A stretch of 44,575 bases of DNA from a virus (lineage: Duplodnaviria; Heunggongvirae; Uroviricota; Caudoviricetes): IMG/VR virus record IMGVR_UViG_2537561980_000012. One strand, given 5' to 3'. Position numbers and translations under genes: made by a program. This document shows positions 1 through 42,192 of this stretch, piece after piece. Numbering within the stretch: position 1 is the first letter of the stretch; each line of letters opens with the position of its first letter. The notes under the pieces were generated by a model. The model saw only the letters and a list, made by a program, of their open reading frames with translations, was not told the DNA's origin and searched no databases.

Positions 1-774
1 TTACAACTTAAAGAGTTTCGCTTGCCCTGGATTAACAGCTTCGACGTAGTTTTTGACCCCTATTCTGTGCGGCTCATAATTGCTTGAATAGAAATCAATC
101 AGGAAGTCACTCATTTTCTGAGATGTGACTTTCATAACTCCCTTACTCAAAGTTAAATTAAACACGCTAATCTTTGACGATGGTGCCTGAGTTTTACTCA
201 TGTTGGCTTGATAACCAGATTTGCGCATTGCCACTAGTGCTTCGTCGTAAGCCGCTTGTAATTGGGCCAAATCGTTTGACGAGATGATCACATCATCCAT
301 AAACACACTTAGCTTGAGATCATGATGTTTGTTCAATCGGCGTAGTAAGCTACCAAAATAACTTTTATCTAAGCAGAGGGTTGCAAGTATTGGAGATTGA
401 ACAAAACCAAAAGGGAGGACATGCTTATGTGGACTATGGGACAAGTTTCTTACAGTTGAAAATGTTGAGATTTCCCGCGCTTGAGAATAGGTGAAGTAGC
501 TCTTTAGATCACGGGTGATACGACTACGGCTCGTTGACTGAAAAAATTGTTTAATATCAACAACGGCAAAAAAATCACTTTTTAAGTGTAATCTGGCAGC
601 TTTAAGATGCCCACCAGTTCTTAGATGGTAAAAATAGAGTGGCGGAATCCACTTGTTTCTGACAGCCTGAAGTATCTTCCCTCCGACTTTACGTGCCTCA
701 ACGCTTGGGACATAAACCCAAACCCCGGGCTTAATCTCAAATTTATCTTCCCACCTTTGAACTTCTATTGTCAT
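1..774 (-). CDS. Reverse transcriptase, retron-like, compact (257 aa); complete ORF with stop at 1-3
   Basis: RT motifs visible in translation: motif 1/2 'KPGVWVYVPSVEARKV..KILQAV', motif A 'VVDIKQFFQS' (cf. retron Ec86 'NIDLEDFFPS'), motif B' 'LPFGFVQSPILATLCLD' (cf. Ec86 'LPQGAPSSPKLANLICSKLD'), motif C 'FMDD' (plus 292-303). Low GC. Only about 14 aa precede motif 1, so the N-terminus is unusually short. Confidence 0.8.
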   Translation of the reverse strand: MTIEVQRWEDKFEIKPGVWVYVPSVEARKVGGKILQAVRNKWIPPLYFYHLRTGGHLKAARLHLKSDFFAVVDIKQFFQSTSRSRITRDLKSYFTYSQAREISTFSTVRNLSHSPHKHVLPFGFVQSPILATLCLDKSYFGSLLRRLNKHHDLKLSVFMDDVIISSNDLAQLQAAYDEALVAMRKSGYQANMSKTQAPSSKISVFNLTLSKGVMKVTSQKMSDFLIDFYSSNYEPHRIGVKNYVEAVNPGQAKLFKL

Positions 775-916
775 GAGTTAAATTGCTGTAGTTGAAGGCC
801 ATGTTAAGAACGGCGTAAACCGCACCAACTAAGCCAACAAACGCGGTTGCGCATTTGAGCATAGCGGTGATCAGTTCAACACGCGCCTTAACTAAGCCAA
901 GTTCGTTTGTATCCAT
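743..916 (-). CDS. Possible small hydrophobic protein (57 aa from second ATG) overlapping RT start; may be spurious within a structured non-coding leader
   Basis: ORF in six-frame track; second ATG has GGAGGAA 6 nt upstream; hydrophobic stretch 'AFVGLVGAVYAVLNMAF'; overlaps RT start by 32 nt. No homology recognised. Confidence 0.25.
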   Translation of the reverse strand: MDTNELGLVKARVELITAMLKCATAFVGLVGAVYAVLNMAFNYSNLTHDNRSSKVGR

Positions 917-1089
917 AACTTGTTCCTCCATAGATACCTGACGTCTCTTAGCGCAAGCGCATGGCCCTAACTAAATAAAAAATAACAACCAGTTAGCCCA
1001 GAAAGCTTAACAAGTCGGCGTCCGATTACATGGCAATCAGGTAATCGGTCCGCAGTCGCAAAGCGACAAACTACATATCTACGGAGTGG

Positions 1090-1099
1090 GGATAAATCC
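1090..1099. repeat. IS186 target-site duplication, left copy (ggataaatcc)
   Basis: Identical 10-mer at 2438-2447 directly flanking the IS; reconstructed target ggggataaatcccc fits the known IS186 G-run/N6/C-run preference. Confidence 0.85.
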
Positions 1100-2437
1100 C
1101 ATAAGCGCTAACTTAAGGGTTGAACCATCTGAAGAATGCGACGCCTCGGTGCCTCGTTAAGACGATGCCTCGCGTTCTTCAATTGCGTTTTGTAGGCTGT
1201 CAGGGATACTGTCCCACGAATGGCCACCTGTAAGCTCCAGATGACCATTTTTGTTATTCTCCACAACGAGTTAGTTCTTCTTTTCGGATCCGGCACTTCT
1301 GGGGGGGAAATCCAGCGATGGCTGGATTATGTCGTCAATTAAAAATGCGGCGAGTAGATTAGCAAATATCCACGCTTTCGCGAGTTCAGGTTCCTTTGCA
1401 CGCAAAGCATCCAGGTGCAGCAAACTTTTGAGCCGCTTAAAAGCCAGTTCAATTTGCCATCGCAGACGGTAACAATCAGCCACTTGCTCTGCTGAATATT
1501 CATCTTCCGGTAATGATGTTAGCAATAGCACATGGCCCGCTGCTTCCAGCGTTTCCGCCTGAACTACTCGTCCTTTTCGACGATTCTCGCTGAGCAGTCG
1601 GGTTTTACTGATTAATGCTTTTTCGGGAGGAAGTGATACGGCAATGAGACGTGCCGGAAAGGGAGCTCCGGCTTTTTTATTACCTGAATTGCCTATCATT
1701 ACAGTGGTTTCACCGTTCTTACCGCAATCCAGCCCGCGCAGAAAACCCATCATGTCAAAGCGCATTCCTTCTGCAGTTAACCAGCGCAATCCTCGCCAGT
1801 GAACCCGGACGATATAATCAGCTTCTCCAAAAGCAAGTGAGCGGATACATTCGGGACGCGAACCGAATCCCGGTCAGCAATGCGTATCTCGTCTGCCGTT
1901 TGCGCAAATCGGTCCAGCCGTTCAGCGTCTCTGCTGTCGGTTAGCTCAAAATCAGTGAACTGACAGGTATGAGGATCATATCCCATATGTAGTCGCCATT
2001 CAGCGCTGCCGCCCCCGGGCGCACTGATTGCTGTTCCATCGACAAGACGCAATCTCTTTCCGCTTGTACAACCCGTAACTGCGGCGCGTACAGCAAGTGT
2101 TTGTGCGGCAAGTATGCCAAACCAGTCGGCGGCATTCCGCAGCCGCTTCAGGAGAGCCACGTCAGATAATGTTGCAACGTCATGGAGCTGAGCCCATGCA
2201 GTGACTTCACGTAATGACATCCCCCCGGGGCCGTAAGCCAGCCCCAGACGTAGCAGAGTTGCAGCATCACGAATTTCGCGGCGGCGGGTTAGAGCCCCGG
2301 CATTACGTGCCGAAGTATCCAGTTCTTCGGGCTTACCAATATGGGCCAGAATTGCTGACCAGTTATCGTGAGAGTAATTCATCGGCACGTTAAATCATAT
2401 CAGGCGTAATACCACAACCCTTAAGTTAGCGCTTATG
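1100..2437 (-). mobile_element. IS186 insertion sequence (IS4 family), 1338 bp
   Basis: 23-bp terminal inverted repeats cataagcgctaacttaagggttg (1100-1122) and its reverse complement (2415-2437); length equals canonical IS186; internal ORFs match IS186 transposase. Confidence 0.95.
1271..2382 (-). pseudogene. insL: IS186 transposase, split by a 1-nt deletion in a G/C run (plus 1869-1871)
   Basis: Two ORFs (203 aa, 172 aa) together reproduce the IS186 transposase as I recall it ('MNYSHDNWSAILAHIGKPEEL...', '...RWLTAEGMRFDMMGFLRGL...'); adding one G in 'gaccgggattcgg' restores 'ADRGFGSRPE...HWRGLRWLTAEG'. Confidence 0.9.
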
Positions 2438-2447
2438 GGATAAATCC
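2438..2447. repeat. IS186 target-site duplication, right copy (ggataaatcc)
   Basis: Direct repeat of 1090-1099 immediately outside the right IR. Confidence 0.85.
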
Positions 2448-2525
2448 CCGCTAACGTCAGGCATTGTTAATTTAACCTCAACTTATAGAAAAGTATAGTT
2501 TTAAATCATGTAGTTATGTCGCCAT

Positions 2526-2744
2526 TTAAATCGGCAAACCCACCTGTTTAAATTTATGAGGATGCGGCTGAACCGGATTTGACTCTTTTGGCGTTGCAAT
2601 CGAACGAACAAAAGTTTCATGGGTAACAAAAGTATGGCTGCAGTTAATGTTCTGGCACTGGTTGTAACGCTCTTTGGTCAATGAAGATACCTGAAAACTG
2701 CTGCGAGTATGGGCGGCACTTCCACACAGTGGGCAAATCATCAT
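2526..2744 (-). CDS. ogr: Late-gene transcription activator, Ogr/Delta/186-B zinc-finger family (start at 'MMICPLCG')
   Basis: 'CPLCGSAAHTRSS...KERYNQCQNINCSHTF' matches P2 Ogr 'CPLCQHAAHARTS...KERYHQCQNVNCSATF'; sits after gene D as in P2. Confidence 0.85.
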   Translation of the reverse strand: MMICPLCGSAAHTRSSFQVSSLTKERYNQCQNINCSHTFVTHETFVRSIATPKESNPVQPHPHKFKQVGLPI

Positions 2745-2834
2745 TTTTCGAGTTCTCCCCATTTTTGCTAAATTCACAATAATGATATCGCATTATTCCA
2801 TTTTTCAAACTTAAAAGTTCTCCATTGTAAAGAA

Positions 2835-3935
2835 TCATTCCATTTCGAGATCATCAACCTTCACTTCAAGCTCAAGACTGGTCGTAAAACCATTATCCGG
2901 GCTGACGGTATGTGTCAGAGTCGTAATGGTCCATTCCGCATCATCTATCGGCTGTTTAAAGCCACTGACTTTCACTGGCATTTCCGTGTAGAGATCTGCC
3001 CGCCCTTCCGCCAGTTGTAGCGAGAATGACGCAACGCCGCGTTGCAGGCGTTCCCACTGCATTTTCGCTGCCCGTTCGGCGTTACTCCGATTGGCATAGG
3101 TGCGATTGAGTACCAGCACGTTTTCATCCGTACCCACCAGGTAATCGCCCTGCTTCGCTTCCGGCTCTTTCTTCTGATTCTTCGTTCTGCGCTTACGCTT
3201 CACCGTAGTGCTTTCTTTCTTCGCGGGTTCGCGGGTATGCAACCAGCTGGCAATTACGCCCGTGTAGGCTCCGCGATCTGCCAGGGTAAAGCGGTGACTG
3301 TCGCCGTCCTTGCGTGTGATAGTGATCACCGGCAGTGGTTTACCGCTGGCGCTTTTACCCTGTCCCTGCCGGATGAATAACAGATTGCCATTTTTCACCG
3401 ACGCAATAGCACCGTACTGGCGCGCCAGCCGCATCAGAAAACTGCCGTCACTCTCATTGGTCTGGTCTATATGTTCCACGGGCTTATCCGACAGGTCTTT
3501 ACCCAGTGCCATCTTCAGCTTATGCCGCGAGGCTATTTCCTTCACCACTTCCCCAACGGTGGTCTTGTGCCACGACTTTTCACGGCGGGTATTCAGCGTT
3601 TCACGAAAATCAGCACTTCGCGCCCGGATAGTCAGGCGGTCCGGTGCGCCAGTGTGTTCAATCTCGTCCACCGTGAATGCCCCTTTAGGGAAAAGCGGCT
3701 GCCCCTTCCAGCCCAGCGCCAGCGTAATGACCGCACCACGGCGCGGCAGCACGATTTTTCCGTCGGCGTCGTCCAGCTCCAGATCAAGCTGGTCCGCTTC
3801 AAAGCCCCGATTGTCCGTCAGAGTCAAACTCATCAGGCGGTTATCCAGCACAGTGTTGATATCCCTGCCCTCAATACTGATGCTGAATGCGGGAGTTTTG
3901 TTGCCTTTGTTAAGCAGTTCAGAGCTGAAATTCAC
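2835..3935 (-). CDS. D: Tail protein D (late control gene D)
   Basis: 366 aa, P2 gpD-like; position between U and ogr. Confidence 0.9.
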   Translation of the reverse strand: MNFSSELLNKGNKTPAFSISIEGRDINTVLDNRLMSLTLTDNRGFEADQLDLELDDADGKIVLPRRGAVITLALGWKGQPLFPKGAFTVDEIEHTGAPDRLTIRARSADFRETLNTRREKSWHKTTVGEVVKEIASRHKLKMALGKDLSDKPVEHIDQTNESDGSFLMRLARQYGAIASVKNGNLLFIRQGQGKSASGKPLPVITITRKDGDSHRFTLADRGAYTGVIASWLHTREPAKKESTTVKRKRRTKNQKKEPEAKQGDYLVGTDENVLVLNRTYANRSNAERAAKMQWERLQRGVASFSLQLAEGRADLYTEMPVKVSGFKQPIDDAEWTITTLTHTVSPDNGFTTSLELEVKVDDLEME

Positions 3936-4417
3936 GACAGCAGCCCTCCCACCGTTTTACTGATATCACTTAAGGCAGATGTTGCCGTGTCCTGCAGATT
4001 ATTCAGCTGCGTACTGAGATCACCGAACATATCGGACAGGGATTCATCCACCCGTTTGAGCGACAGGGTGAACTCAATCCGGCGCGGCATACCGTCGCGG
4101 AAAAACTCCGTTTTAGTCAGATTCAGTCCCTCAATCACATACATGCCGTAAATCGTGCCGCTGCCTTCAATCAGGGGCCATGCTTTTCCCTGTTCTGCCA
4201 TCTGCTCCAGAGCCAGCAACGACAGCCTGCCGCCCGTTATCTCCGGCATAAGAACACCAGAAAGCGTCAGCATGTCGTTGTCCGGTCCCAGAAACTGCGT
4301 GGACGGACGACGGTTTACCCGGCTGTTTGCCGCATGTCGCCAGCTGCGTTGATACTGCAGTTCCTGATACGGAACGGTGCGCAGCATAAACACGTACAAT
4401 CCCAGCACCATCATCAT
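3932..4417 (-). CDS. U: Tail protein U
   Basis: 161 aa, gpU-like; ATGA-type overlaps with T and D. Confidence 0.9.
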   Translation of the reverse strand: MMMVLGLYVFMLRTVPYQELQYQRSWRHAANSRVNRRPSTQFLGPDNDMLTLSGVLMPEITGGRLSLLALEQMAEQGKAWPLIEGSGTIYGMYVIEGLNLTKTEFFRDGMPRRIEFTLSLKRVDESLSDMFGDLSTQLNNLQDTATSALSDISKTVGGLLS

Positions 4418-7400
4418 GCGTCGTATCCCCCCTGATCGCTGTAGTTACTCCTGGCTTTTGCCTTCAGCCTGCGTTCACGTTCATCAAGCTGGCGTGCCAC
4501 CTCCCGCGCAATATCCTGCGCACTTTGTCCTGGCTGCGTCTGAATGATGATCTGCGTCGGTGCCTCAATCCGGTGAACGGGCGGCACAGTGGCTGCACGA
4601 CTCACCATCGCTTCGCCGCCTTTCGCGGGAAGTGCCAAAGGATGCAACGGTGGAAGCTCTGCAGGCGCGGCAGCAACGCCCATCATTCCGGCAACAACGG
4701 CAGCCAGTGCAGCTGTATTTCTCCGGCTGGTCACATTTGCCGGGCCGTTAACAATTTCCGGCCCGTTTTCACCGACGATGCCAAACTGCCCGCGCGGGAT
4801 ATAGCCGCCGCTGTCATACATCCCCGCAAAGCCATATCCCCATGACGGAAAACCACCCGATGGCATCATCACTTTACCGTCTGCATTCACCGTCGCAGGT
4901 TGCTGACGCGTCACTCTTTCCGGCAATTTCGCCTTTGCAGCCTCTTTACTGACAATGCCGAGTTTCTCCAGCAACCAGGAAACGCCGGATTTCAGGGAGT
5001 CCAGCGGATGCATGACCATATTCAGCCCTTCCGCCAGTGCCTCCCCGAATCGTCGCCCCATTGCCGCTGCGCTCTGCAGTTCGGCAGAGGTCGACTTAAC
5101 GGGCGTCAGCAGATCAGTAAACCAGCCCCACAACGCCTGCACTTTGTCGCCAATCCACTGAAACACAGGCTTAAGTGGTTCGAATGCTGCACTGATGGGA
5201 CCTGCCGCCGCTTTGAATCCTTCCACCACACCAGCGAGAAATGCGGTGATGGGTTGCCAGTATTTCCAGACAACCAGCGCCACGCCCGCCAGTGCAGTAA
5301 CCACAAGACCTATCGGACTGAGCAGAGCACCTAACAGACCCGATATGGCATACAGGGCAACGCGCAGCATCGCCAGCGGACCGGATGCCAGTACTCGCAG
5401 CACCGCGCCTGCGGCAGCCAGTCCACCGCGTAGTGCTGCCAGTGGATTCATAAACATCACAGCAACAGCACGTAAACCGGATAATCCAGACCGCAACAGT
5501 GCAACCGGCACACCTACTACAGTTTTCAGGACATTCCCCGTCAGTGATGCCGTGCGGCGCAAAGACGACAACGGCGCAGTAAGTAAACCCGCTGCGTTGC
5601 CCGATGAAGCAAGCCCGCGTCGCAGCAGTGCCAGTGGAGCGCCAGCTAACCAGGACAACGCGCTGCTGGTTCGTGTTACTGCTGCCGTAACGGAAGGTAA
5701 CGTTTTGATACCCAGCACAGAGAATCCCAGACGGATGACTGCCAGCGGCCCCAGCACTGCAGCCAGCGCCACCACTAAGGTGCCGAGGCCTACGGTAACC
5801 GCAGCCACAACAGCCGCTACTTTCATCAGTGTGCCTGTCAGTTCCGGGTTAGCTTCCACCCAGCGGCGCAACGCCCCCGTGATGCTTTTCACCGTGTACA
5901 GAATATCCATCAGCGGCTGGCGCAGCGTTTCGCCCAGGCTGCTGAAGGTGTTCTGCGCTCCGGTTTTGACCAGTAACCACTGAGCAGAAAGTGAGTCCTT
6001 ATTGATGTCGGATTCTTTCTGCATGGAGCCGAGCGCATCATTGCCCGCTGTCAGTTTTAACTGACGCTGCAGTTCCGGCAGGTTGTTTGCCAGTTTCGCC
6101 GCGTCATCGCCAAACTCTTTACCAAACAACATGGTCATGGCAGACAGACGCTTGTCCTGCGGCAGTGCGTTCACCTTCTCCAGCACACGCTGGATAGTTC
6201 CCATCGCATCCTTCGTCATCTGCTTTTCAATCACTTCAGGATTGAGTTTCAGCAGATTCATCCCTTCAAAGAAACTCTTGCTCTGCATGGTGGCAATGGA
6301 CAATTCACGCACCATCGCGTTTGCTGCACTGGCTGCAACCTCCGGCGCAGCGCCCAGTGTCAGGAAGGTGGAACCCAGCACCGCCGCTTTACGATAATCC
6401 AGACGGTCAGCCACACCGCCCAGACGTTGCATCACATCAATGATGTCCGCCCCTTTCGACATGGCGTTATCATCCAGATAGTTCAGCGCATCGCCGAGCT
6501 GTTCAATATTGCGGGTTGGTATTTTGTAGAGCTGGGCGATTTTCCCCAGACTTTCTGACAGTTCATCCGCTGGCAGCTCAAAGGCTGTTGCCGCCTTTGC
6601 TGCCGTACTGGCGAAGGCCAGCAGGTCACGTTTCTGGTCTTCCCAGCTGTCGTCAGGGTTTGCGACGTTCATGCGCGCACCACCTTCAACCAGTGCAGCG
6701 AAGTCCACCGCACCGTTTTCCATCGGCAACTGTTCGCTGGCAGCCTTGATGGCATCCTGCATTTCATAAAAACGTGCAGTGCGGTTGCCATTATCGTCAC
6801 GCAGACCATTGACCTGCTTTGCCACACCTTTCATGGCATCTTCCATGCTGGTATAGCTTTTTACTGCCGCCATCACTGGCGCACCCATTGCCAGCCCTGC
6901 AGCCGTGGTAGTGGCTCCGGCTCCTGCGATGCGATCGCGCACTTCAAGCCGTCTTGAGTATTGTTCTCTGGCAGCGTTCATCCGTGCCTGTTGTTCACCC
7001 AGACGTTTAAGTGCTTTTTGCTGGCCCTCCAGTGCCTGCCTTGTTTCTTCAGCATTTTTCTTAAGTTCTCGCTGGGCACTACTGAGTTGTCTGGTATCAA
7101 TCCCTGATTCTTTAAGTGCCTGACGTTGTCTCTGGACCGCCCCCAACAAGCCGTTATAGGTCTGCTGAAGTTCCTGTACTCGTGTTTTGGCCTGACTGAA
7201 TAACTTTGCCTGCGCGGCGGTTGGCCTGTTAGTGGCAGCAAATTGTGTGGCGAGTTTTGCCGCCTCTTCGCGGGCTGCGTTCAGGTTGTTGGCTGTTATG
7301 GCTAGTTGCGAGCGCGTCTTGCGAAATTCATCAATTCTGCCAGCCTGCTTATTCAGTTCTTTGAGGCTGTTTCGGGTATTCTGAATTGCGCCAGCCAGCT

Positions 7401-31664: not shown

Positions 31665-32297
31665 ATGTTAAACATCAGAATGGGTTCCGATACGGGAGGT
31701 AAAGCAGCTATTGAGAGGCTGCTTGCGGCTTATGGATTCACAACTAAGCAGGCATTAAGTGAGCACCTGAATGTCTCAAAAAGCACTATGGCAAACAGAG
31801 TGTTACGTGACAGCTTTCCTGCTGACTGGATAATTCAGTGCGCACTAGAAACCGGTGTTTCGTTGCTTTGGTTAGCTACAGGACAGGGAAGCATGAAAGC
31901 AGGATCTGAGACTGAAAAAAGATCTCATAATGAGAACAAACAAGCAATTAAACCGTTATCTAAACTCATAACTCCATCTATTCCTAAAGGAACCTTGGAG
32001 AATGGACAACTCAGTATTGATGAAGAGATTTTCCTAGACCACAGCATATTACCTGCAAATTATGAAGAATCGATGTTCTTAGAAACCCCTACTGATTGTT
32101 ATCTCATCGATAAATCAGTTAAACAAGTCAGCAATGGATTCTGGCTTATCAATATTGATGGAATGATTATTATTGCAAAAATTATGCGGATTCCCGGCAA
32201 TAAGATTGTAGTAAATCAAGATGAAGCGTCTTTCGAGTGCTCTGCTGATGATGTGGAAGTTATTGGGCGTGCAGTCAAAGTAATAAAGAGTATCTAA
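31665..32297 (+). CDS. cI: CI repressor (186 type, HTH N-terminus plus oligomerisation domain)
   Basis: 210 aa with HTH 'TTKQALSEHLNVSKSTMANRV'; immediately followed by int in the same orientation, as in phage 186. Confidence 0.8.
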   Translation: MLNIRMGSDTGGKAAIERLLAAYGFTTKQALSEHLNVSKSTMANRVLRDSFPADWIIQCALETGVSLLWLATGQGSMKAGSETEKRSHNENKQAIKPLSKLITPSIPKGTLENGQLSIDEEIFLDHSILPANYEESMFLETPTDCYLIDKSVKQVSNGFWLINIDGMIIIAKIMRIPGNKIVVNQDEASFECSADDVEVIGRAVKVIKSI

Positions 32298-32299
32298 AC

Positions 32300-33316
32300 A
32301 TGACTGTCAGAAAACAGCCAAACGGCAAATGGTTGTGTGAGTGCTATCCCAATGGACGCAATGGCAAGCGCGTGCGTAAGCAATTTGCTACGAAAGGAGA
32401 AGCCATTGCTTTTGAAAGCTTCACAATGGAAGAAGTGAATAAAAAACCGTGGCTAGGTGAAAAGGATGATCGGCGACGCCTATCAGAATTAATTGAGCTT
32501 TGGTATTCCCTGTATGGCCAGACACTCGCAGACCCCAAGCGCCTCATGGCGAAACTTAGAATTATCTGTAATGGTCTAGGCGACCCCATCGCCTCAGAAC
32601 TGACAGCCGGTGACTTTACAAAATACCGCGAAGCACGGTTAAAAGGCGACGTTCGTAACGAAGACGGCACACTAATGTCGCCAGTAAAACCACGCACGGT
32701 GAATCTTGAGCAACGTAACCTATCATCGGTTTTCGGCACATTGAAAAAACTAGGCCACTGGTCAGCACCAAATCCTCTCGCCGGGCTGCCAACATTTAAA
32801 ATCGCTGAGGGGGAACTGGCGTTCCTGACCTCGGAAGAAATTAAACGTCTGCTAGATGCCTGCGCTGATTCTCAAAACCCCAGTCTGCTTTTGATTGCAA
32901 AAATATGCCTGGCCACCGGCGCACGCTGGAGTGAAGCCGAAAACCTGCAGGGCCATCAGTTATCTAAATACCGCATCACTTATACCAAGACGAAGGGCAA
33001 GAAAAACCGCACCGTGCCGATATCTCAAGATCTGTATGACGAACTCCCCAAGAACAGAGGGAAGCTATTCACCCCGTGCAGAAAAGCCTTTGAACGGGCA
33101 GTAAAGCGAGCTGGCATCGAGCTGCCAGAGGGCCAATGCACTCACGTGCTACGTCATACATTCGCCAGTCATTTTATGATGAATGGCGGAAACATACTGG
33201 TCCTACGCGATATTCTGGGCCATGCCGATATAAAAATGACGATGATTTACGCCCACTTTTCGCCGGATCATCTTGAAGATGCAGTTACTAAAAACCCTTT
33301 ATGCAACTTAAGATAG
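32300..33316 (+). CDS. int: Tyrosine integrase (P2/186 family)
   Basis: C-terminal catalytic region 'HVLRHTFASHF...LGHADIKMTMIYAHF'. Confidence 0.9.
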   Translation: MTVRKQPNGKWLCECYPNGRNGKRVRKQFATKGEAIAFESFTMEEVNKKPWLGEKDDRRRLSELIELWYSLYGQTLADPKRLMAKLRIICNGLGDPIASELTAGDFTKYREARLKGDVRNEDGTLMSPVKPRTVNLEQRNLSSVFGTLKKLGHWSAPNPLAGLPTFKIAEGELAFLTSEEIKRLLDACADSQNPSLLLIAKICLATGARWSEAENLQGHQLSKYRITYTKTKGKKNRTVPISQDLYDELPKNRGKLFTPCRKAFERAVKRAGIELPEGQCTHVLRHTFASHFMMNGGNILVLRDILGHADIKMTMIYAHFSPDHLEDAVTKNPLCNLR

Positions 33317-33695: not shown

Positions 33696-35438
33696 CTACT
33701 CAAGAAGATATTCTAACTCATCTTTTATCGGGATAACTTGCTCATAAAGTCGGTGATATGACTTCCCAATTGCGCCTCTGAATTGTATTAACTTTGGTGG
33801 CTTGTTACCTATATTAATAATATGGTCTTGAGCTATACCTGGGTAGGGATCAATAAATACAATTTCAGATATACCTAACTGATAAGCTTTTTTCGCACAC
33901 AGCTCACAGGGACTGGCAGTTGTATATAACCTCCCCCCCTGAACGCCAATGCCACCATATTTTGCAAGTTGTAAAAATGCGTTTTCCTCAGCATGTAATG
34001 CACGTGTATGAACTTGATTACCTTTTTTATCTTTATCAAGATCATTATGTATATCTTTAAAACAATAAGATAAGTTCCTGCCTCTATAAATATCACCAGT
34101 TTTATCTATCGCCCTAAAATTTAATAGTTTCTCATTAGCTTTAATTCTGAAAGAACTATTATTTCTCTCATAATGACTGTACACTTTTTCATCAAAGTCG
34201 TTCATTAGGCCATCTAGCGATCTCATAGAGCAAGGAATCTGACCGTTGGCGACATCATTCCAACCCACTGATTTTATTGAATTTTCACCATCAGTTACTA
34301 CAGCTCCCACCTGTCTAGATATACAACCAGAGTTTAATTTTACCGTATACGCAACTTGCATAACCCTTTCCATTGCAGTAGGTGTTATCAGACCAGGATG
34401 CTTCATCAGTGCGATGTACCACGCTAATTGTGCTTTTAAAATATTGTCATTATCAAATTCATTTTTTGGGTTAAAAATGTGTATATCTGATAGTTCAATG
34501 CATTTAGTTACATTTGGATTAGTGAGATGTTTGTAAGAGTTATCACCTTTACCTGACTCTACAGAATCTATTTCCTCTATCTGCTTTTCAGAAAACTTAT
34601 GTAGTTTCCGCAAATAGTTTGTTCGATGTTCATCTGGGGCATTTATTGACATTAAATGAAATGCAGAATATCTATCCTTAAAAAATTTTGCTTCATATGG
34701 ATTTCTAATAGCATCTATGACAATTAATGCGTTATCTCTTTTGCTTTTTCTTATTAATTTAATAACCCTATTAATAGTTTCCGGCAAATGAAAAACAGAT
34801 TTAGGTATAAACTCTTTATCTTCAAAATCGACTTCAATACGCCCACGGCGTCTAATTGACTTACCTGCTAACTGATAGACTGAAACATATAAATTTGAGT
34901 TTATCGCATTTAGTTCAGCTTTGAATTCCTTAGTAAATTTTCTAACTAACCTCAAAATTGATATAAATTTATTAATCGTTTTTTCATTAAGCTTCAATTC
35001 ACTATTATGATCAAGCAAATTCTCAATTACATTTTTAAATCTTGTTAAAATGAGATTATCTGAAAATACACCAAAAGTTAATACATTATCTAAATGCTCT
35101 TTACTGATAGATTTATTAGATGATAGAATAAACTCAGAAGCTTCTTCAACTGTTAACATCAAAAGATACGCTGAGATTAGGTCACTCACCTTAATTGAGT
35201 AAAAATTTTCCCAGTGATTTTCTGCGAATTTTTTAACTATATTATAACGATGGACATCCAATCCCTTGTAAAAACCCTGTAATTTACTTACATCAGGGAA
35301 GACTGTTTTTTCGTTTTCAAGAATATTAGCTGTTGTTGTGCAACCAGAACCAGTTCGACCTGTCAAACCGACTAAAATAAACTGCCCATTTTCAAGGAAA
35401 AGCTCACTAACGAATTTTTTTCTTTCATCACGTCCCAC
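33696..35438 (-). CDS. P-loop nucleotide kinase fused to cytidine/dCMP deaminase (AvcD / defensive dCTP-deaminase type)
   Basis: N-terminal Walker-A-like 'GLTGRTGSGCTTT'; C-terminal zinc-deaminase motifs 'HAEENAF' and 'PCELCAKKA'. Very low GC. ORF as given starts at GTG; an ATG at 35426-35428 becomes in-frame if the T7 run at 35415-35421 is one base short. Confidence 0.75.
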   Translation of the reverse strand: MGRDERKKFVSELFLENGQFILVGLTGRTGSGCTTTANILENEKTVFPDVSKLQGFYKGLDVHRYNIVKKFAENHWENFYSIKVSDLISAYLLMLTVEEASEFILSSNKSISKEHLDNVLTFGVFSDNLILTRFKNVIENLLDHNSELKLNEKTINKFISILRLVRKFTKEFKAELNAINSNLYVSVYQLAGKSIRRRGRIEVDFEDKEFIPKSVFHLPETINRVIKLIRKSKRDNALIVIDAIRNPYEAKFFKDRYSAFHLMSINAPDEHRTNYLRKLHKFSEKQIEEIDSVESGKGDNSYKHLTNPNVTKCIELSDIHIFNPKNEFDNDNILKAQLAWYIALMKHPGLITPTAMERVMQVAYTVKLNSGCISRQVGAVVTDGENSIKSVGWNDVANGQIPCSMRSLDGLMNDFDEKVYSHYERNNSSFRIKANEKLLNFRAIDKTGDIYRGRNLSYCFKDIHNDLDKDKKGNQVHTRALHAEENAFLQLAKYGGIGVQGGRLYTTASPCELCAKKAYQLGISEIVFIDPYPGIAQDHIINIGNKPPKLIQFRGAIGKSYHRLYEQVIPIKDELEYLLE

Positions 35439-35623: not shown

Positions 35624-35661
35624 ATGTAGGAATTTCGGACGCGGGTTCAACTCCCGCCAGC
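35624..35661 (+). other. 38-nt copy of the ssrA (tmRNA) 3' end: attachment-site remnant
   Basis: 'atgtaggaatttcggacgcgggttcaactcccgccagc' matches the E. coli ssrA 3' end as I recall it but lacks the terminal 'tccacca' and all upstream ssrA sequence. Confidence 0.8.
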
Positions 35662-35823: not shown

Positions 35824-38800
35824 TCAGAACGACCAGTTCACACCAGCTACCCCGTTCCACGGGGATTCCACACCGGCACCATGGCTATACCCCACCCCAA
35901 GATGCCCGCTTAACGTACTGCTGAATGAGGCTTTAATACCTGCCTGGTATATTCCACGTCTGCCCGACAAATCATTGACGAAATTACCGTCACTATTCAC
36001 TTTCACCCGGTTATCATCGACAAATTCTTTGCGCACAGCCGCCTTCAGCCACGGCTCAACTTCCATACCGTTCCCCAGACGCATGTTGTAACTCAGCGTT
36101 GCACCCAGTTCACGATATAAACTGCGGGTATCGACTGATTTCGATTCCATGCCATTGGATAAATGATATTCAGGGTTATCAGCGGTGAACCCCCGTTAAC
36201 GATGCATACGGCGTCAGGTTCCAGTTACCATCGGTAAATCGCATCCCGGTTTCAATGTGACCGCCCAGCCCGTAGCTGCGATAACTGCCGTTGGCGGCTC
36301 CACCGCTGCCAACCGTGGAGTCGCGAGCTTCGGTACCTGCTAATACCAATAAATTACCGCCATTTTCCAGCAACATATTGGTCGCTAAATTGCCGGAAAT
36401 GGAAAAAGTGCCGTACTGGTGAGTACCGCTGATTTCAATACCGTTAGCCGTGCTCGTCTGGAGAGCGGCACCGCTGTTCTGGACGATATCTGTCGCTTTG
36501 CCATTATCGTTAACTGTCAGCGTACCGCCTTCATTGATCTTTGTTTTTATTGCCTCTCCGTTAGCTGAAACTGTTTGTATTCCGCCGTCGTTAATCGTTG
36601 TCTCATTCGCCACCCCCTCGACGATTTGTTCGCCGCCGGTGAGCGTCGTGCCTGTCGCAGTGGCTTTTGTTTTGACGATCTCCCGTCCGCCCGTATTGAC
36701 CTGTGTTTTGTCAGAAGAGGTGTCTGACTCCACGGTTAACACGCCGCCATTTGCCAGCAGGATATTGTTCGCCGCACCCTGCTCGATGCTGAACGCGACG
36801 CCATCCGCGCGTGTTCCTGTGACCCGCGTCGCCCTGGTGGTTGCAACCAAAGCGCCCTGGCTACTCTGCTGTATCCCCGTTGCGCTGCCTTTCTCCCGCA
36901 CATCGAGTGTGCCGCCGTCATTAAGCACCGAGTTTTCAGCCAGACCGCCCTCATTAACTACCTGTGAACACCCATTAATAATGGAACCTTCCGCTATCCC
37001 GTTTGCCATAATTTGTTGTAGGCCAGAGACGATATCGGTATTGATCGCCTTACCATAATTCTGAACGGTTTGTGTGCCGCCATTGATGTGCGTTTTGTCA
37101 GTTGACCCACCATCAACAATTTGTTCACCACTTTCAATATTTGCCTCAGTGGCTAAACCATATACCGTTTGCTTGCCACCTTTGATATTTGCTTTATCAG
37201 AAGTGGCACTGGCATATATTGTTTGGGTGCCAGCACTATTAAGTACAGTGCCAACATCTTTTCCATAAACATCCATTTTGCCGTTGGCATTAATAATCGT
37301 ATCAACTGCCCGGGAACCAGTGACGACTGTTAATGAGCCAGCGTTTTCCAGCACTACATTTTTAGCTTCTGAATTCCTGATGTAGAAAGCATCACCATAA
37401 CTGTTGGTTCCTTCGATAAGGGTTCCGGAAGTTGTGGAAGCAATTAATGCGCCGCCGGATTGTTGCTCAACATGCTTAGCCTCACCACCGTCCTGAACCT
37501 CCAGAACGCCACCATTATTAAGTCTGGTGGTATCTGTTTTAGCCTCCTTCTGGACAATCAGCTTACCGCCAGCATCAACGGTAGTATTTTTCGCCGAGGT
37601 TTTAGCCACTACCGTCAGTTCGCCGGTATTTTCCAGCACAACATAATTAGCCTCCCCTCCGGTAATAGTGAAGTGAGAGAGCTTGTTGTATCCTTCAATA
37701 TCAGTCCCTGCGCCCGTGTTGGCAACTAAAGCACTGCCCGTCTCCTGGTTAACCCCATGTGCAATACCGCCGGTATAGACAATCAGCGAGCCTCCGGCGC
37801 TAATATTGCTGCCAATTGCCGTACCATCTTTCTCAACAACTTGCTGGCTCCCGGAGGATATAATTGTTGTGTCAGCTTTCCCACCGCTTTTGATATTTTG
37901 CGTTCCGCTGTTGATATTGGTGCCTGTGGCTATGCCATAATTATTAAGATTCTGTGTGCCACCATTAATTATGGTATTTGTCGCGTTTCCTGCAACATCC
38001 ATAACCCCGCCATTATCTATTCGGGTCGCATCAGCTTTAGCATTCGTTAAAACTGACATTGTTCCTTTATCTTTAATAATCGTCTTGTTTGCGGAATGAG
38101 ATACTTCTAAATGGCCTCCATTTTCCAGCAACACATTGTCTTCCACTTTATTGTGGATGGAGAATGCACCTTCACTATTCGTACCGCTCACCGTCGTACC
38201 GTTAGTGTTTGTTTTTAAAATTGCACCATCGTGCTGGGTAACATTTGTTGCCGTACCACCACTAACATCAAGCACGCCACCGGAATAAACTTCAATAACA
38301 TCCGAGGTGCTGGTGTTATTAACAATTTGCGTGCCACCAGAATAGATCTGCGTAATTTTTGCCGTTGACTTACTATTCAGAGACTGAGTTCCGCCTTCAA
38401 TCGTCGTGTCCAGCGCACGGCTCTCATATACTCTTTGCTCACCGCCATTTTTAATGGTTGTTGTTTCTACTGTGCTCTGTTCAACATACTGTCGACCACC
38501 ATTTATGGTTGTGTTCGTTGCCAGACTTCCTTGTACTACGTCCTGAGAGCCAGACTTATTTATCGTTGTACCATCAGCATGCCCTTGAACTTTTACTATC
38601 TGGCTACCACCATCAATGAGTATTCCATTCGCACTCCCTCCCTCTACGCGTGAAGCACCGCCCTTAATTGTCGTTCCATTGCTGATACCCCCTTTATAAA
38701 CGTCCTGATTGCCACTCTCGATTGTCGTACCTGTGGAAATACCCCCGTCATGAATTGACTGTCTGCCACCGTTAATGGTTGTATTATTAGCCTGCCCCAC

Positions 38801-39088
38801 AAAATTGTTATGACTTCCTATATCTTGATATCCACCAGATTCAATAAGACTTCCATTAGATACCCCGCCATGAACATTCTGCTGGCCATGGTTGATAATA
38901 TGAGTGTTATTTGTTGTACCTCGTTCATCCACTTTTTGGTTGCCATCTACAGTCTCATCGTTTACCACACCAATAACATCAGGAGTGAAGGCCGCCATAC
39001 CGGGCGGGGCATATATCAAGGCAGATATCAATAAGGAAAGTACTGAGCGGCGACAATAATGGGGACTGGTCCTGTTCATAAATTTCAT
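35824..39088 (-). CDS. Autotransporter adhesin (repeat-rich passenger plus C-terminal beta-barrel), frameshifted at a C5/G5 run (plus 36190-36194)
   Basis: Extended signal peptide ('MKFMNRTSPHYCRRSVLSLLISALIYA'), Gly/Thr/Asn-rich passenger repeats, barrel ending in terminal 'NWSF'; removing one G joins the 1009-aa ORF to the 108-aa C-terminal ORF. Resembles the ypjA neighbourhood of E. coli K-12. Confidence 0.85.
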
Positions 39089-39417
39089 CCTCTGAAAAGT
39101 GAATACTGAGTAGCGTTTAAGCGACCTTAGCTCTGCTGCAACATCAGCCCACAGGCACCAGACCAGGGGATTCATCCTGAAGAGACAGCGCAAGTGTATT
39201 GTGTTCACCGCTCATCAAAGACATCATGATGAAATGATGATATTCCACATAAGAAAGAAGCATTTTTTAAACGCAGTGCGCTGAAGTATGGTTGGATAAA
39301 AAAGTCAATCTATTCAGGGAATACGGGGGTATTCTTTTCTTTCGACAATCAGGTCGTCGGCAAAATAAAATGATTTACATAATCGTTTCTGATGAATATC
39401 TTCTGCTCACATAAAAA

Positions 39418-39657: not shown

Positions 39658-39991
39658 TTACGTTGAAGAGGTAACCCTGAGCACGCAGTTCATCAGTCAG
39701 GCGTGGTGTACCGTAACCCTATTATTGATGGGTAAGATCAAAAAAACTTTCAGGCAGCTAAGGAAAGTTGAACCAGACATTAGAATAAATATTTCAACCA
39801 ATTACAGCACCAATTCAGACACCGCCAGCTCAACAAATAAATCAAGGGGTTACGTGAAAGCGTAGCCCCTTTTTCTTTGGTAGTGGCAGCAAAATGGTTG
39901 TAGTGTAAAAAATAATCCCGTTTAATCAATCAATAATACATATTGTTTCAATCTACGTTATTATCTCTTTGTAAAAATAGCCATTTATTAA

Positions 39992-41365
39992 TCATTGAAA
40001 ACTGCTTTTAGAACTTGATACAACGGGACTAGTCACAACAGGACTATTCTCAACGGGATCATCCTCAGAGGAACTATCATCAAAGTCATCATCCATAAAT
40101 AAAATATCATCGAATGGTGCCACGCCCGTGATGAGTTTTATTTTATTATTACGATCAGTCAAGACTCCACTTAAACCGTTTTCGCTCACAGGTTTTAATG
40201 ATTTTTCATTACTCTTGTTGTAAGCAGGCGCATTAAAAATACACGGAGTATCAAGATCAAACAATGACGTTCCCCAGTTCACATATTGAATATCATAGTT
40301 ACTGAAGTTCTGTCCAGAAAAGAAGCATCCCTTAAAATCCAATCCACCTAAATTATATAAACCATCCTCTTCTTTTTGGAGAGTAATGTTAATTTTGGCT
40401 ATCTCCCGGACATCATCGCCATTTTTATATTTGAATACCGTTTCAAGATTTTCCCCACACAGTTTGACTTCTGGAAATAATTTGAAATCAAAGCCTATAT
40501 TATTATGTATCAACGTAGATGAACAAAAGATGGAGAAAGCTTGCAGTGCTGAATTATAGCTTTCGATTTTATCCTGAGGCTGCGCTCTTGGTAAAAACTC
40601 ATAGCAACATTCATAAAAATTAAGTAGAAACTCTGAAGACCTTCCATTTTTATCAAATAATATCCCCTTGAACTCATTCACAAACGCATCTTTTTTTTCT
40701 TGAATATCTATGGGGTGTTCCTTTGACTCTGACAAAGATGAAATCTCATCTATTTTGTTTTCATATGAATTACGTGATTCCATACAGACATTTGGCGGCG
40801 TTTCTAAAATAACACTACGCGTACTACTTGGCTTAAGTAAACCAACATGAAAATCACTTTTTCTTATATTATCGAAAAGGTTCTGTTCATTTCTTTTAGC
40901 GCATTCAAAAAACTGATCGGCATTATTTTTATTCGATAATTTTTTAGTTTCAGAAAACACATTTTCATTGTTTTCCAGCTTTAGTTTAATGAGAAGATTT
41001 TCCCAGGCCTGCTTGCTTAAACATATTACGTCAGGCTCACCAGAACTAACTAACTCGTGATTATTATTAAAGTGTACGTTGAATACCTTTAAGTTATTTT
41101 CACCAACTTCATATTTAATACGTTTTAATTGTTCTCCAGCTCCCATAATGACAAAGGCGTTGCCTTCTTGATATATACATTCAGACATCATTTTTTGTAA
41201 AGTTTCAAGAGCACCGCGATACGTCTCTGATGCAGCTTCCTTACAAATTAATTTTAAAATACTATGAGCTAGTAGCTCCATGTGTTTAGAAGATTTATTT
41301 TCATTATAACTTCCACTACCCAAAACTGCGCTAGCGTTAAATCCGTTGCTTTTACTAACTAACAT
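39992..41365 (-). CDS. Hypothetical AT-rich protein (457 aa) with acidic C-terminal tail
   Basis: Long ORF, low GC, Asn/Lys-rich; no catalytic motif recognised. Confidence 0.6.
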   Translation of the reverse strand: MLVSKSNGFNASAVLGSGSYNENKSSKHMELLAHSILKLICKEAASETYRGALETLQKMMSECIYQEGNAFVIMGAGEQLKRIKYEVGENNLKVFNVHFNNNHELVSSGEPDVICLSKQAWENLLIKLKLENNENVFSETKKLSNKNNADQFFECAKRNEQNLFDNIRKSDFHVGLLKPSSTRSVILETPPNVCMESRNSYENKIDEISSLSESKEHPIDIQEKKDAFVNEFKGILFDKNGRSSEFLLNFYECCYEFLPRAQPQDKIESYNSALQAFSIFCSSTLIHNNIGFDFKLFPEVKLCGENLETVFKYKNGDDVREIAKINITLQKEEDGLYNLGGLDFKGCFFSGQNFSNYDIQYVNWGTSLFDLDTPCIFNAPAYNKSNEKSLKPVSENGLSGVLTDRNNKIKLITGVAPFDDILFMDDDFDDSSSEDDPVENSPVVTSPVVSSSKSSFQ

Positions 41366-42116: not shown

Positions 42117-42192
42117 TGGTGGCCCTTGCTGGACTTGAACCAGCGACCAAGCGATTATGAGTCGCCTGCTCTAACCACTGAGCTAAAGGGCC
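42117..42192 (-). tRNA. ileY: tRNA-Ile2 (anticodon CAU, ileX/ileY type)
   Basis: Minus strand reads 'GGCCCTTTAGCTCAGTGGTTAGAGCAGGCGACTCATAATCGCTTGGTCGCTGGTTCAAGTCCAGCAAGGGCCACCA'; cloverleaf with CAT anticodon and encoded CCA. Confidence 0.9.

Follow-up and report, generated by a model that had tools for sequence, protein, structure and literature searches.

The 44,575-nt sequence of the Caudoviricetes record IMGVR_UViG_2537561980_000012 (hereafter, the window, to which all coordinates refer) carries a copy of the insertion sequence (IS) IS186 between ogr, the final backbone gene of a P2/186-like prophage, and a gene for a compact reverse transcriptase (RT). Comparative analysis of related loci indicated that the DNA targeted by this IS is the template for hairpin P1 of a conserved, structured leader RNA of ~200 nt. 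The leader, or non-coding RNA (ncRNA), would head a cargo module that continues with a small open reading frame (ORF) of 57 aa, termed SP, and a 257-aa RT most similar to retron RTs. We consider it probable, taking the account as a whole, that IS186 entered the P1 hairpin of the leader and thereby split, and most likely inactivated, this three-part RT module.

The element spans 1338 bp (1100–2437, minus strand). Its terminal inverted repeats (CATAAGCGCTAACTTAAGGGTTG) were perfect over 23/23 bp and located at 1100–1122, the end distal to the insL start, and at 2415–2437, the proximal end. A 10-bp target-site duplication (GGATAAATCC) flanked the element (left copy, 1090–1099; right copy, 2438–2447), and the direct repeat amounted to 12 bp (1089–1100 and 2437–2448) when the ambiguous terminal G and C were included. 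Deletion of the IS together with one repeat copy restored a target, GTGGGGATAAATCCCCGC, which was 100% identical to the uninterrupted site in Escherichia coli CV839-06 and other strains and whose core, GGGGATAAATCCCC, was the canonical GGGG-N6-CCCC palindrome. A preliminary description of this DNA had reported a 1338-bp IS186 whose 23-bp inverted repeats are perfect and which is flanked by a duplication of 10 bp, situated 88 bp from the ogr stop codon (2526–2528) and 326 bp upstream of the RT start (774). These values were reproduced, with the corrections that the copy is 1 bp shorter than the reference element and that its transposase gene is frameshifted. An artefact of assembly, in which a repeat was collapsed or misplaced, is barely conceivable as the origin of this arrangement: IS186 is multicopy and a 1-bp homopolymer deletion in this copy hints at imperfect sequence quality, but the duplication is clean at both junctions and identical junctions were present in seven independent complete genomes.

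Alignment of related loci defined the architecture of the leader. Sigma-70-like −35 and −10 elements are followed, after 6–7 nt, by the motif YCYGRCRWUAG, comprising arm a1 and an invariant UAG, and then by hairpin P1, a pyrimidine-rich segment b1, hairpin P2, and a variable region. The 3′ part consists of the block UUGGUUUU...CAUGCGC-UUU-GCGCUAGG, arm a2, which is the reverse complement of the 5′ motif, and segment b2 with the Shine-Dalgarno sequence. The stem sequence of P1 was variable across the family, and the E. coli version of the hairpin (GGGGAUUUAUCCCC, minus strand) is identical with the target of IS186. P2 had the form GUCAC-NNN-GUGAU in the family and GUCGC-UUU-GCGAC in E. coli. 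In the window, where all leader parts lie on the minus strand, a cut-off 5′ fragment (2438–2462), assigned by alignment, RNAalifold, and pair counts, contained a1 (CCUGACGU; 2461→2454), the invariant UAG (2453→2451), and the 5′ half of P1 (GGGGAUUUAUCC; 2449→2438). The 3′ fragment (913–1099; nhmmer match at 1090→913, profile positions 27–170) contained the 3′ half of P1 (1099→1088), b1 (1086→1076), P2 (1067→1055), the conserved block CAUGCGCUUGCGCUAAG (963→947), a2 (ACGUCAGG; 944→937), and b2 with the Shine-Dalgarno sequence (936→925).

Both sequence and structure of this element were conserved. The RT family, with lengths of ~250–260 aa, was represented by 72 protein clusters and by 80 genomic loci when representative genomes of the Gamma-, Beta-, and Alphaproteobacteria were examined. 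The leader profile gave one match per locus in 52/80 of these loci, across Gamma- and Betaproteobacteria. The matches were always on the RT strand and ended 100–183 nt (325 nt in one case) upstream of the RT, and no off-target match was obtained in 0.79 Mb. Base pairing was evaluated by pair counts and shuffles on an alignment of 31 leader sequences, in which 95% of the cells were paired, compared with 86.6% after column shuffling and 32–43% with slid partners. Changes on both sides of a pair occurred in 60 cells against 17.7 expected, a value reached by 0/500 shuffles. RNAalifold recovered the a1/a2 helix, the base of P1, P2, and a GCG/CGC stem. The a1/a2 helix (7–9 bp) was 97% paired with compensatory changes in 5/7 pairs (e.g., UA:15/CG:15 and GC:21/AU:8), so that the leader, like the ncRNA of retrons, is closed by inverted repeats. 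A hairpin directly followed the UAG in 31/31 sequences, although the stem sequences were unrelated. The duplex of b1 and b2 had a mean energy of −13.8 kcal/mol, compared with −9.1 kcal/mol for mismatched partners (p = 2e-10), and its positions covaried. This duplex covers the Shine-Dalgarno sequence of SP, a putative toxin, and the ribosome-binding site (RBS) of the ORF would accordingly be sequestered within the ncRNA, as described for type VI retrons. The reconstructed 177-nt RNA had a predicted folding energy of −62.9 kcal/mol (z = −3.6) with a 9-bp terminal helix. The b1/b2 helix (1076–1086 with 926–936) crosses a1/a2, and the two could constitute a translational switch.

These data bear directly on the possibility that the IS lies in a functionless spacer between ogr and RT, as a neutral insertion informative only on the target preference of IS186. 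No Rfam family was found at the leader, with only transfer-messenger RNA (tmRNA) detected in window positions 1–3000 and in an uninterrupted locus (L002), and a sigma-70 scan did not call a promoter at the E. coli site. The site nevertheless falls within an element that is conserved in sequence and structure, occurs once per locus upstream of 52/80 RT genes, and shows compensatory base changes. The covariation already contradicts such a neutral spacer, which we regard as very improbable, and points instead to a structured leader RNA as the target of the insertion.

The recurrence of the insertion was evident from other genomes. The uninterrupted site was present in 25 complete E. coli genomes, 3 of which were 100% identical, and IS186 was found at the identical base pair with the identical duplication in 7/32 carrier genomes (22%), three times in the orientation of the window and four times inverted. 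Since IS186 is present in both orientations, at least two independent insertions must have occurred. The flanks of the window (1–1099 and 2448–6300; 4.95 kb) were 100% identical to those of IS-free CV839-06 and differed by 71 mismatches from those of FDN-24, an IS-bearing strain with the same orientation, which suggested a third event. The site has therefore been hit in at least two, and probably three or more, independent events, and the seven genomes hit at one position in both orientations identify it, on the basis of genome comparison, as a true hot spot. A search of the 44.6-kb window revealed no second GGGGN6CCCC site, with 0.42 sites expected by chance. All three IS186 copies of K-12 were inserted in the same register as that of the window, GGGG-N6-CC/IS/GG-N6-CCCC (GGGGATCACTCCCC, GGGGAGTAATCC, and GGGGATAATTCCCC). 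A consensus for the IS186 target was reportedly published by SaiSree and colleagues in 2001. The canonical IS186 hot spot claimed in the preliminary description was thus borne out by the G4N6C4 register and by the seven genomes hit at the same base pair, and the comparison with IS-free relatives that it had proposed revealed, in the 25 genomes with an empty site, a hairpin of the conserved leader at this position.

The GC clamp of P1 offers a possible explanation for this recurrence. As a sequence-specific target for IS186, the clamp would attract the element again and again in E. coli, in independent events and in either orientation, and the hot spot would be a by-product of the sequence of the RNA hairpin. 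The insertions in the lon promoter of E. coli B and K-12 and the resident IS186A, B, and C insertions of K-12 are closely comparable, in that they share with the window the same element (apart from a 1-bp deletion), the GGGG-N6-CCCC target, the 10-bp duplication, and the register. At the lon promoter, IS186 likewise inserts at one base pair in both orientations (PMC3045373, which cites SaiSree et al. 2001). Unlike the lon insertions, which affect a host promoter, the window insertion has as its target the GC clamp of a conserved RNA hairpin in a prophage-borne RT module, and unlike the lon and K-12 copies, the window copy has a frameshifted transposase gene. In K-12, the small toxin genes hokC and hokE are followed by IS186A and IS186B at a distance of 19 bp from their stop codons (L085, 15387–16731, and L087, 608007 onward), and the third copy lies inside the nupC terminator hairpin; this distribution suggested that IS186 targets tend to be GC-clamped RNA hairpins. 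In a further match (hit H8), the "reverse transcriptase" annotated beside an IS186 copy was an unrelated group II intron remnant.

We next considered how the insertion divides the module. Both CV839-06 and the reconstructed empty site gave a full-length match to the leader profile (positions 2–170, 62 bits), and the window matched only at positions 27–170 (1090→913); the same truncated match was obtained in two other IS-bearing loci (L003 and L084). The ogr side of the IS retains the predicted −10 element, a1, the UAG, and half of P1, corresponding to ~25 nt of transcript. The RT side retains the other half of P1, b1, P2, the variable region, the conserved 3′ block, a2, b2, SP, and RT, with ~185 nt of leader, and the two leader parts are now 1.35 kb apart. 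The pattern TTGNNN-N16-18-TANNNT ended 6–7 nt before the first leader base in 13/32 relatives, with 2 matches at any other offset. By positional homology with these relatives, a promoter for the leader/SP/RT operon was predicted in the window at 2469–2497 (minus strand), with a −10 element TAAATT at 2474→2469 and a weak −35 element TATACT at 2497→2492. The preliminary description had suggested that the IS may cut off the RT locus from a promoter or ncRNA belonging to it. The comparative evidence supported this suggestion and placed the IS inside the RNA element itself, with the empty site carrying a predicted, positionally conserved sigma-70-type promoter on its ogr side.

On these grounds, the following course of events appears probable. 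An IS186 copy transposed into its sequence-specific target GGGG-N6-CCCC, generating the 10-bp duplication, and this palindrome is the P1-encoding DNA of the leader. In the intact leader, the closing helix a1/a2 would surround P1, P2, and the variable region, and the second long-range helix, b1/b2, would occlude the Shine-Dalgarno sequence of SP. The insertion strands the predicted promoter next to ogr, together with the first leader parts (a1, the UAG, and half of P1), such that the closing helix could no longer form locally and the module would be deprived of its own promoter. With the predicted promoter removed and the closing helix prevented, the module is most likely silenced. The RBS of SP should stay masked because b1/b2 is intact, and the putative toxin would be held untranslated, which would make P1 a tolerated place to break the system. 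In contrast, in Retron-Vpa2, a type VI retron, removal of the entire non-coding part up to the RBS was highly toxic (bioRxiv 10.1101/2025.10.22.683967).

The RT gene (1–774, minus strand) encodes 257 aa with an FMDD active site and matched RVT_1 (2e-21). Among PADLOC models, the best was that of the retron RT_VI (6.6e-18, 63 bits, 194/279 profile positions), followed by RT_I-B, RT_IX, and RT_II-A with 54.5, 51.8, and 47.8 bits, respectively. In a profile search of the PDB, the best 13 matches were all retron RTs, and the protein aligned to the Ec86 RT over residues 61–296; of the retron motif NAxxH, only the His was kept in this alignment. The nearest relatives of the RT, as judged by profile similarity, are thus retron RTs. 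The first residue of the active site (FMDD, residue 158) is Phe throughout the 198-member E. coli cluster, compared with YMDD in nearly all relatives. The RT of phage KS5 (339 aa, beside a helix-turn-helix [HTH] gene) was found to belong to a different system. The leader profile missed the RT relatives of Alphaproteobacteria (L058–L081; ~35% identity), several of which had GGCGAUAGCC-type motifs at an upstream distance of 260–310 nt, along with a small ORF that terminates in V-V-N-Y; these loci probably harbor a diverged form of the module.

SP (743–916, minus strand), which the preliminary description had left out between the leader and RT, is preceded by GGAGG and overlaps the RT start by 32 nt. 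In the window, it comprised a single hydrophobic helix and the C-terminal conserved motif L-N-M-A-F-N-Y. Most of the 80 related loci had a homologous small ORF at the corresponding position, with a length of 40–65 aa, an end at or overlapping the RT start, one hydrophobic helix, and the motif L-x-M-A-F-N-Y. SP is annotated as hypothetical in RefSeq and had no match in Pfam, PADLOC, NCBIfam, or PHROGs. No conserved gene was found downstream of the RT among 47 loci, and no other conserved ORF was found in the module.

The module was then compared with known systems. In overall logic, type VI retrons were the closest known systems; their ncRNA is joined to a small toxin whose translation is repressed (bioRxiv 10.1101/2025.10.22.683967; 10.64898/2026.04.27.721009). 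Retron-Vpa2, Retron-Sen3, and Retron-Eco12 of this type resemble the module in having a structured ncRNA that runs contiguously into a downstream toxin-like small ORF with a hydrophobic core, an RBS of this ORF sequestered by the RNA, and an operon ending in an RT gene, with RT_VI as the best PADLOC model for the RT of the module. In contrast to these retrons, the module has no Cro/C1 HTH gene between SP and RT, which overlap directly; the Sen3 preprint likewise reports about 22% of type VI entries without an HTH gene. Furthermore, SP is shorter (40–65 aa versus 75–79 aa) and without a model match, the RT has only ~255 aa and a score of 63 bits, barely above those of other retron types, and the closing helix lies upstream of SP rather than being wrapped around it. 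The module may be viewed as working like a retron or type VI hybrid RNA, as a candidate rather than an established member of that family. The classical retrons Ec67, Ec73, and Ec86, which are cargo of P2/186/P4-type prophages, are similar in combining an RT with an upstream ncRNA with terminal inverted repeats. They differ in that the RT of the module has V-F-N for VTG and only the His of NAxxH, is shorter by ~60 N-terminal and 25 C-terminal residues, and is accompanied by no enzymatic effector gene.

A third comparison concerned the hok/sok-type loci of K-12 hit by IS186, where a small hydrophobic toxin-type ORF is likewise under long-range mRNA pairing and IS186 lies in an adjoining GC-rich palindrome. 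The IS is downstream of the toxin ORF in those loci and in the 5′ leader in the window, and the module has no evident antisense RNA and includes an RT gene in its operon. This resemblance raises the alternative that the leader is only a cis-acting 5′ untranslated region (UTR) controlling a small membrane toxin in the manner of hok-like type I systems and not a template for the RT, in which case the module would not be a retron. The occlusion of the SP Shine-Dalgarno sequence by b1/b2, the position of two of the three K-12 IS186 copies 19 bp past the hokC and hokE stops, the incomplete canonical retron motifs, and the pairing of the UAG in most relatives are all compatible with this alternative. 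However, the leader shows strict linkage to this RT, for which retron RTs make up all of the closest relatives, and a terminal closing helix around an internal variable region is the msr-msd layout of retrons. We consider a UTR without a template function unlikely, though well worth keeping in view; even then, the IS would still sever the UTR from its promoter. The two readings can coexist, since a single "hybrid RNA" serves both functions in type VI retrons, and reverse transcription of the leader as in retrons would remain compatible with translational control of SP. The UAG following a1 was also considered as a possible counterpart of the retron branching G, an assignment that is tentative because the UAG is base-paired in most relatives.

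Several observations weigh against a retron-like module that has been inactivated by the IS. The crossing of a1/a2 and b1/b2 implies either alternative folds or a pseudoknot. In most relatives, the P1 stem includes the invariant UAG, which sets it apart from the canonical branching G of retrons. The RT scored far below the family cut-offs of all curated retron models (49.5 bits against a cut-off of 235 for the best NCBIfam model, retron St85), and it has V-F-N, in which F and N are invariant, in place of the retron VTG. The promoter predicted in E. coli is weak by consensus (3/6 positions for −35 and 4/6 for −10), and a simple promoter scan of the minus strand of the E. coli intergenic region gave no call. 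A terminator scan found no convincing terminator on the minus strand of the IS, and the counts of these scans were at chance level. Expression of SP and RT could still result from read-through from ogr, insL, or the native promoter, or from transcripts that cross IS186 or start within it. Finally, the recurrence of the insertion may reflect pure mutational bias of no selective value.

The possibility of continued expression leads to a further alternative, in which the insertion rewires the module, and transcription from insL or through the IS drives SP and RT without a1, resulting in constitutive or altered activity. The transposase gene is on the minus strand in the window and hence co-directional with SP and RT, and no convincing minus-strand terminator was found between insL and the IS end. 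In contrast, 4 genomes have the IS inverted at the same site, an observation that speaks against a gain of function tied to orientation, a scan revealed no outward promoter-like site, and the occlusion of the SP RBS by b1/b2 is kept. Rewiring thus appears improbable, and silencing of the module remains the favored outcome of the insertion.

None of the 13 retron types of Mestre et al. (2020) has the gene content of the module. No description of this RT/SP/leader family was found in the literature searched or in Rfam, PADLOC, or NCBIfam, and the literature contained no relevant link between retrons and IS186, no "type XIV" retron, and no meaningful naming of WP_000151541. Together with the conservation described above, the module constitutes a well-supported, apparently undescribed retron-like module at the level of sequence. 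Somewhat more tentatively, at rather less than even confidence, it may represent an undescribed minimal retron type, with an ncRNA closed by a1/a2, a hydrophobic effector of ~50 aa whose RBS is masked by the same RNA, an RT of ~255 aa, and neither an HTH gene nor an enzymatic effector. Such a type would be widespread in Proteobacteria, att-proximal in P2/186-like prophages of Enterobacterales, and, in E. coli, repeatedly and tolerably inactivated by IS186. The IS186 event itself is ordinary; its value lies in pointing to a compact RT module (~1.3 kb) with an unusually well-conserved leader, which combines RNA logic resembling that of retrons with that of type I toxins. If the module were a working defense or abortive-infection system, it would be among the smallest retron-type systems and attractive for mechanistic studies and retron-based editing tools, and natural pairs with and without the IS (the window and CV839-06, with identical flanks) would provide ready isogenic controls. 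It would also be a concrete example of a mutational hot spot that arises from the sequence requirements of an RNA hairpin and time and again disables a cargo gene of prophages. Interest in the module would rise if it proved to be a functional minimal retron.

The genomic context placed the RT module inside the prophage. The ogr gene (2526–2744, minus strand; 72 aa; Ogr_Delta, 6.7e-22) precedes the leader, and the gene order in IS-free genomes was smpB, ssrA, 108 bp, RT(−), small ORF(−), intergenic region, ogr(−), D(−), and tail genes. At the far end, the CI repressor and integrase genes lie at 31665–33316 (int, 32300–33316), and a displaced 3′ end of ssrA, marking the far att junction, was found beyond int at 35624–35661 (plus strand; 38 nt, 100% identical to ssrA nt −45 to −8). 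A second, longer copy of the ssrA 3′ end was located at 39822–39897 (93.5% identity), and the two partial copies suggested tandem islands at ssrA. An exact or near-exact search of the window with the last 26 nt of ssrA gave no match; the two partial copies were detected by BLAST with a longer query. The module also adjoined ogr in a prophage integrated elsewhere, beside ybjL, was joined to gpD-ogr in Klebsiella michiganensis and Kalamiella, and was terminal in 13 phage records from Klebsiella, each 35.5 kb long.

The preliminary description had also raised the possibility that the IS marks the prophage/att boundary, in which case the RT locus would be host DNA or a separate islet outside the prophage. 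The RT is indeed the last gene before ssrA in CV839-06, and the similarity to other P2-like prophages stops near 2560, just after ogr (partial matches, query 712–1152). However, BLAST of the window with ssrA as the query detected no repeat between RT and ogr or near 1090–2447, and the empty site had no ssrA core repeat; the core copies lie at 35624–35661, beyond int, and at 39822–39897. Since the RT–ogr gap has no ssrA repeat, the similarity ends after ogr, and the module stays with ogr in the ybjL prophage, K. michiganensis, Kalamiella, and at the ends of the Klebsiella phage records, the IS does not mark the prophage boundary. A boundary at the IS is extremely improbable, and the genome comparisons locate the RT module inside the prophage, at the att end, with the prophage integrated at ssrA.

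The transposase gene of the window IS186 differed from that of intact copies. The reference K-12 IS186A measures 1339 bp by the same delimiters, and 1338/1339 positions were the same in the window copy, the difference being a single deleted base; CCC is present at 1869–1871 of the window, compared with CCCC in K-12 IS186A and at least 2700 other copies. IS186 was matched in 2221/5426 complete E. coli genomes at 99.9% identity. The deletion in the C run, which the preliminary description had passed over, results in a −1 frameshift in insL (1271–2388, minus strand) that breaks the 370-aa InsL into two ORFs (1777–2388 and 1271–1789) of 203 and 172 aa, both of which matched DDE_Tnp_1. InsL was an intact 370-aa protein in K-12 and in the IS-bearing locus L003. 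The deletion may be a genuine mutation or a homopolymer sequencing error. By its sequence, the window copy belongs to IS186 (IS4 family), yet without an intact 370-aa DDE transposase InsL it would be non-autonomous as sequenced.

Other genes were observed beyond the integrase and in related strains. A 580-aa ORF (33696–35438, minus strand) with a dCMP/cytidine deaminase zinc-binding domain (PHROG 8118) lies between the integrase and the displaced ssrA fragment, and is a second cargo gene, across attP, which may serve in defense by nucleotide depletion. Between and after the ssrA copies, we found an autotransporter-like ORF with AIDA repeats (36179–39208) and a DUF5507/DUF5508 ORF (39992–41365). 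The IS-bearing E. coli FDN-24 (L084) carries a prophage remnant, with the tape-measure gene truncated and fused to ypjA, and has a SIR2-family gene, not ssrA, past the RT. A tRNA with a CAT anticodon at 42117–42192 (minus strand) was assigned as tRNA-Met by ARAGORN, and its equivalent in FDN-24 is annotated as tRNA-Ile in RefSeq.

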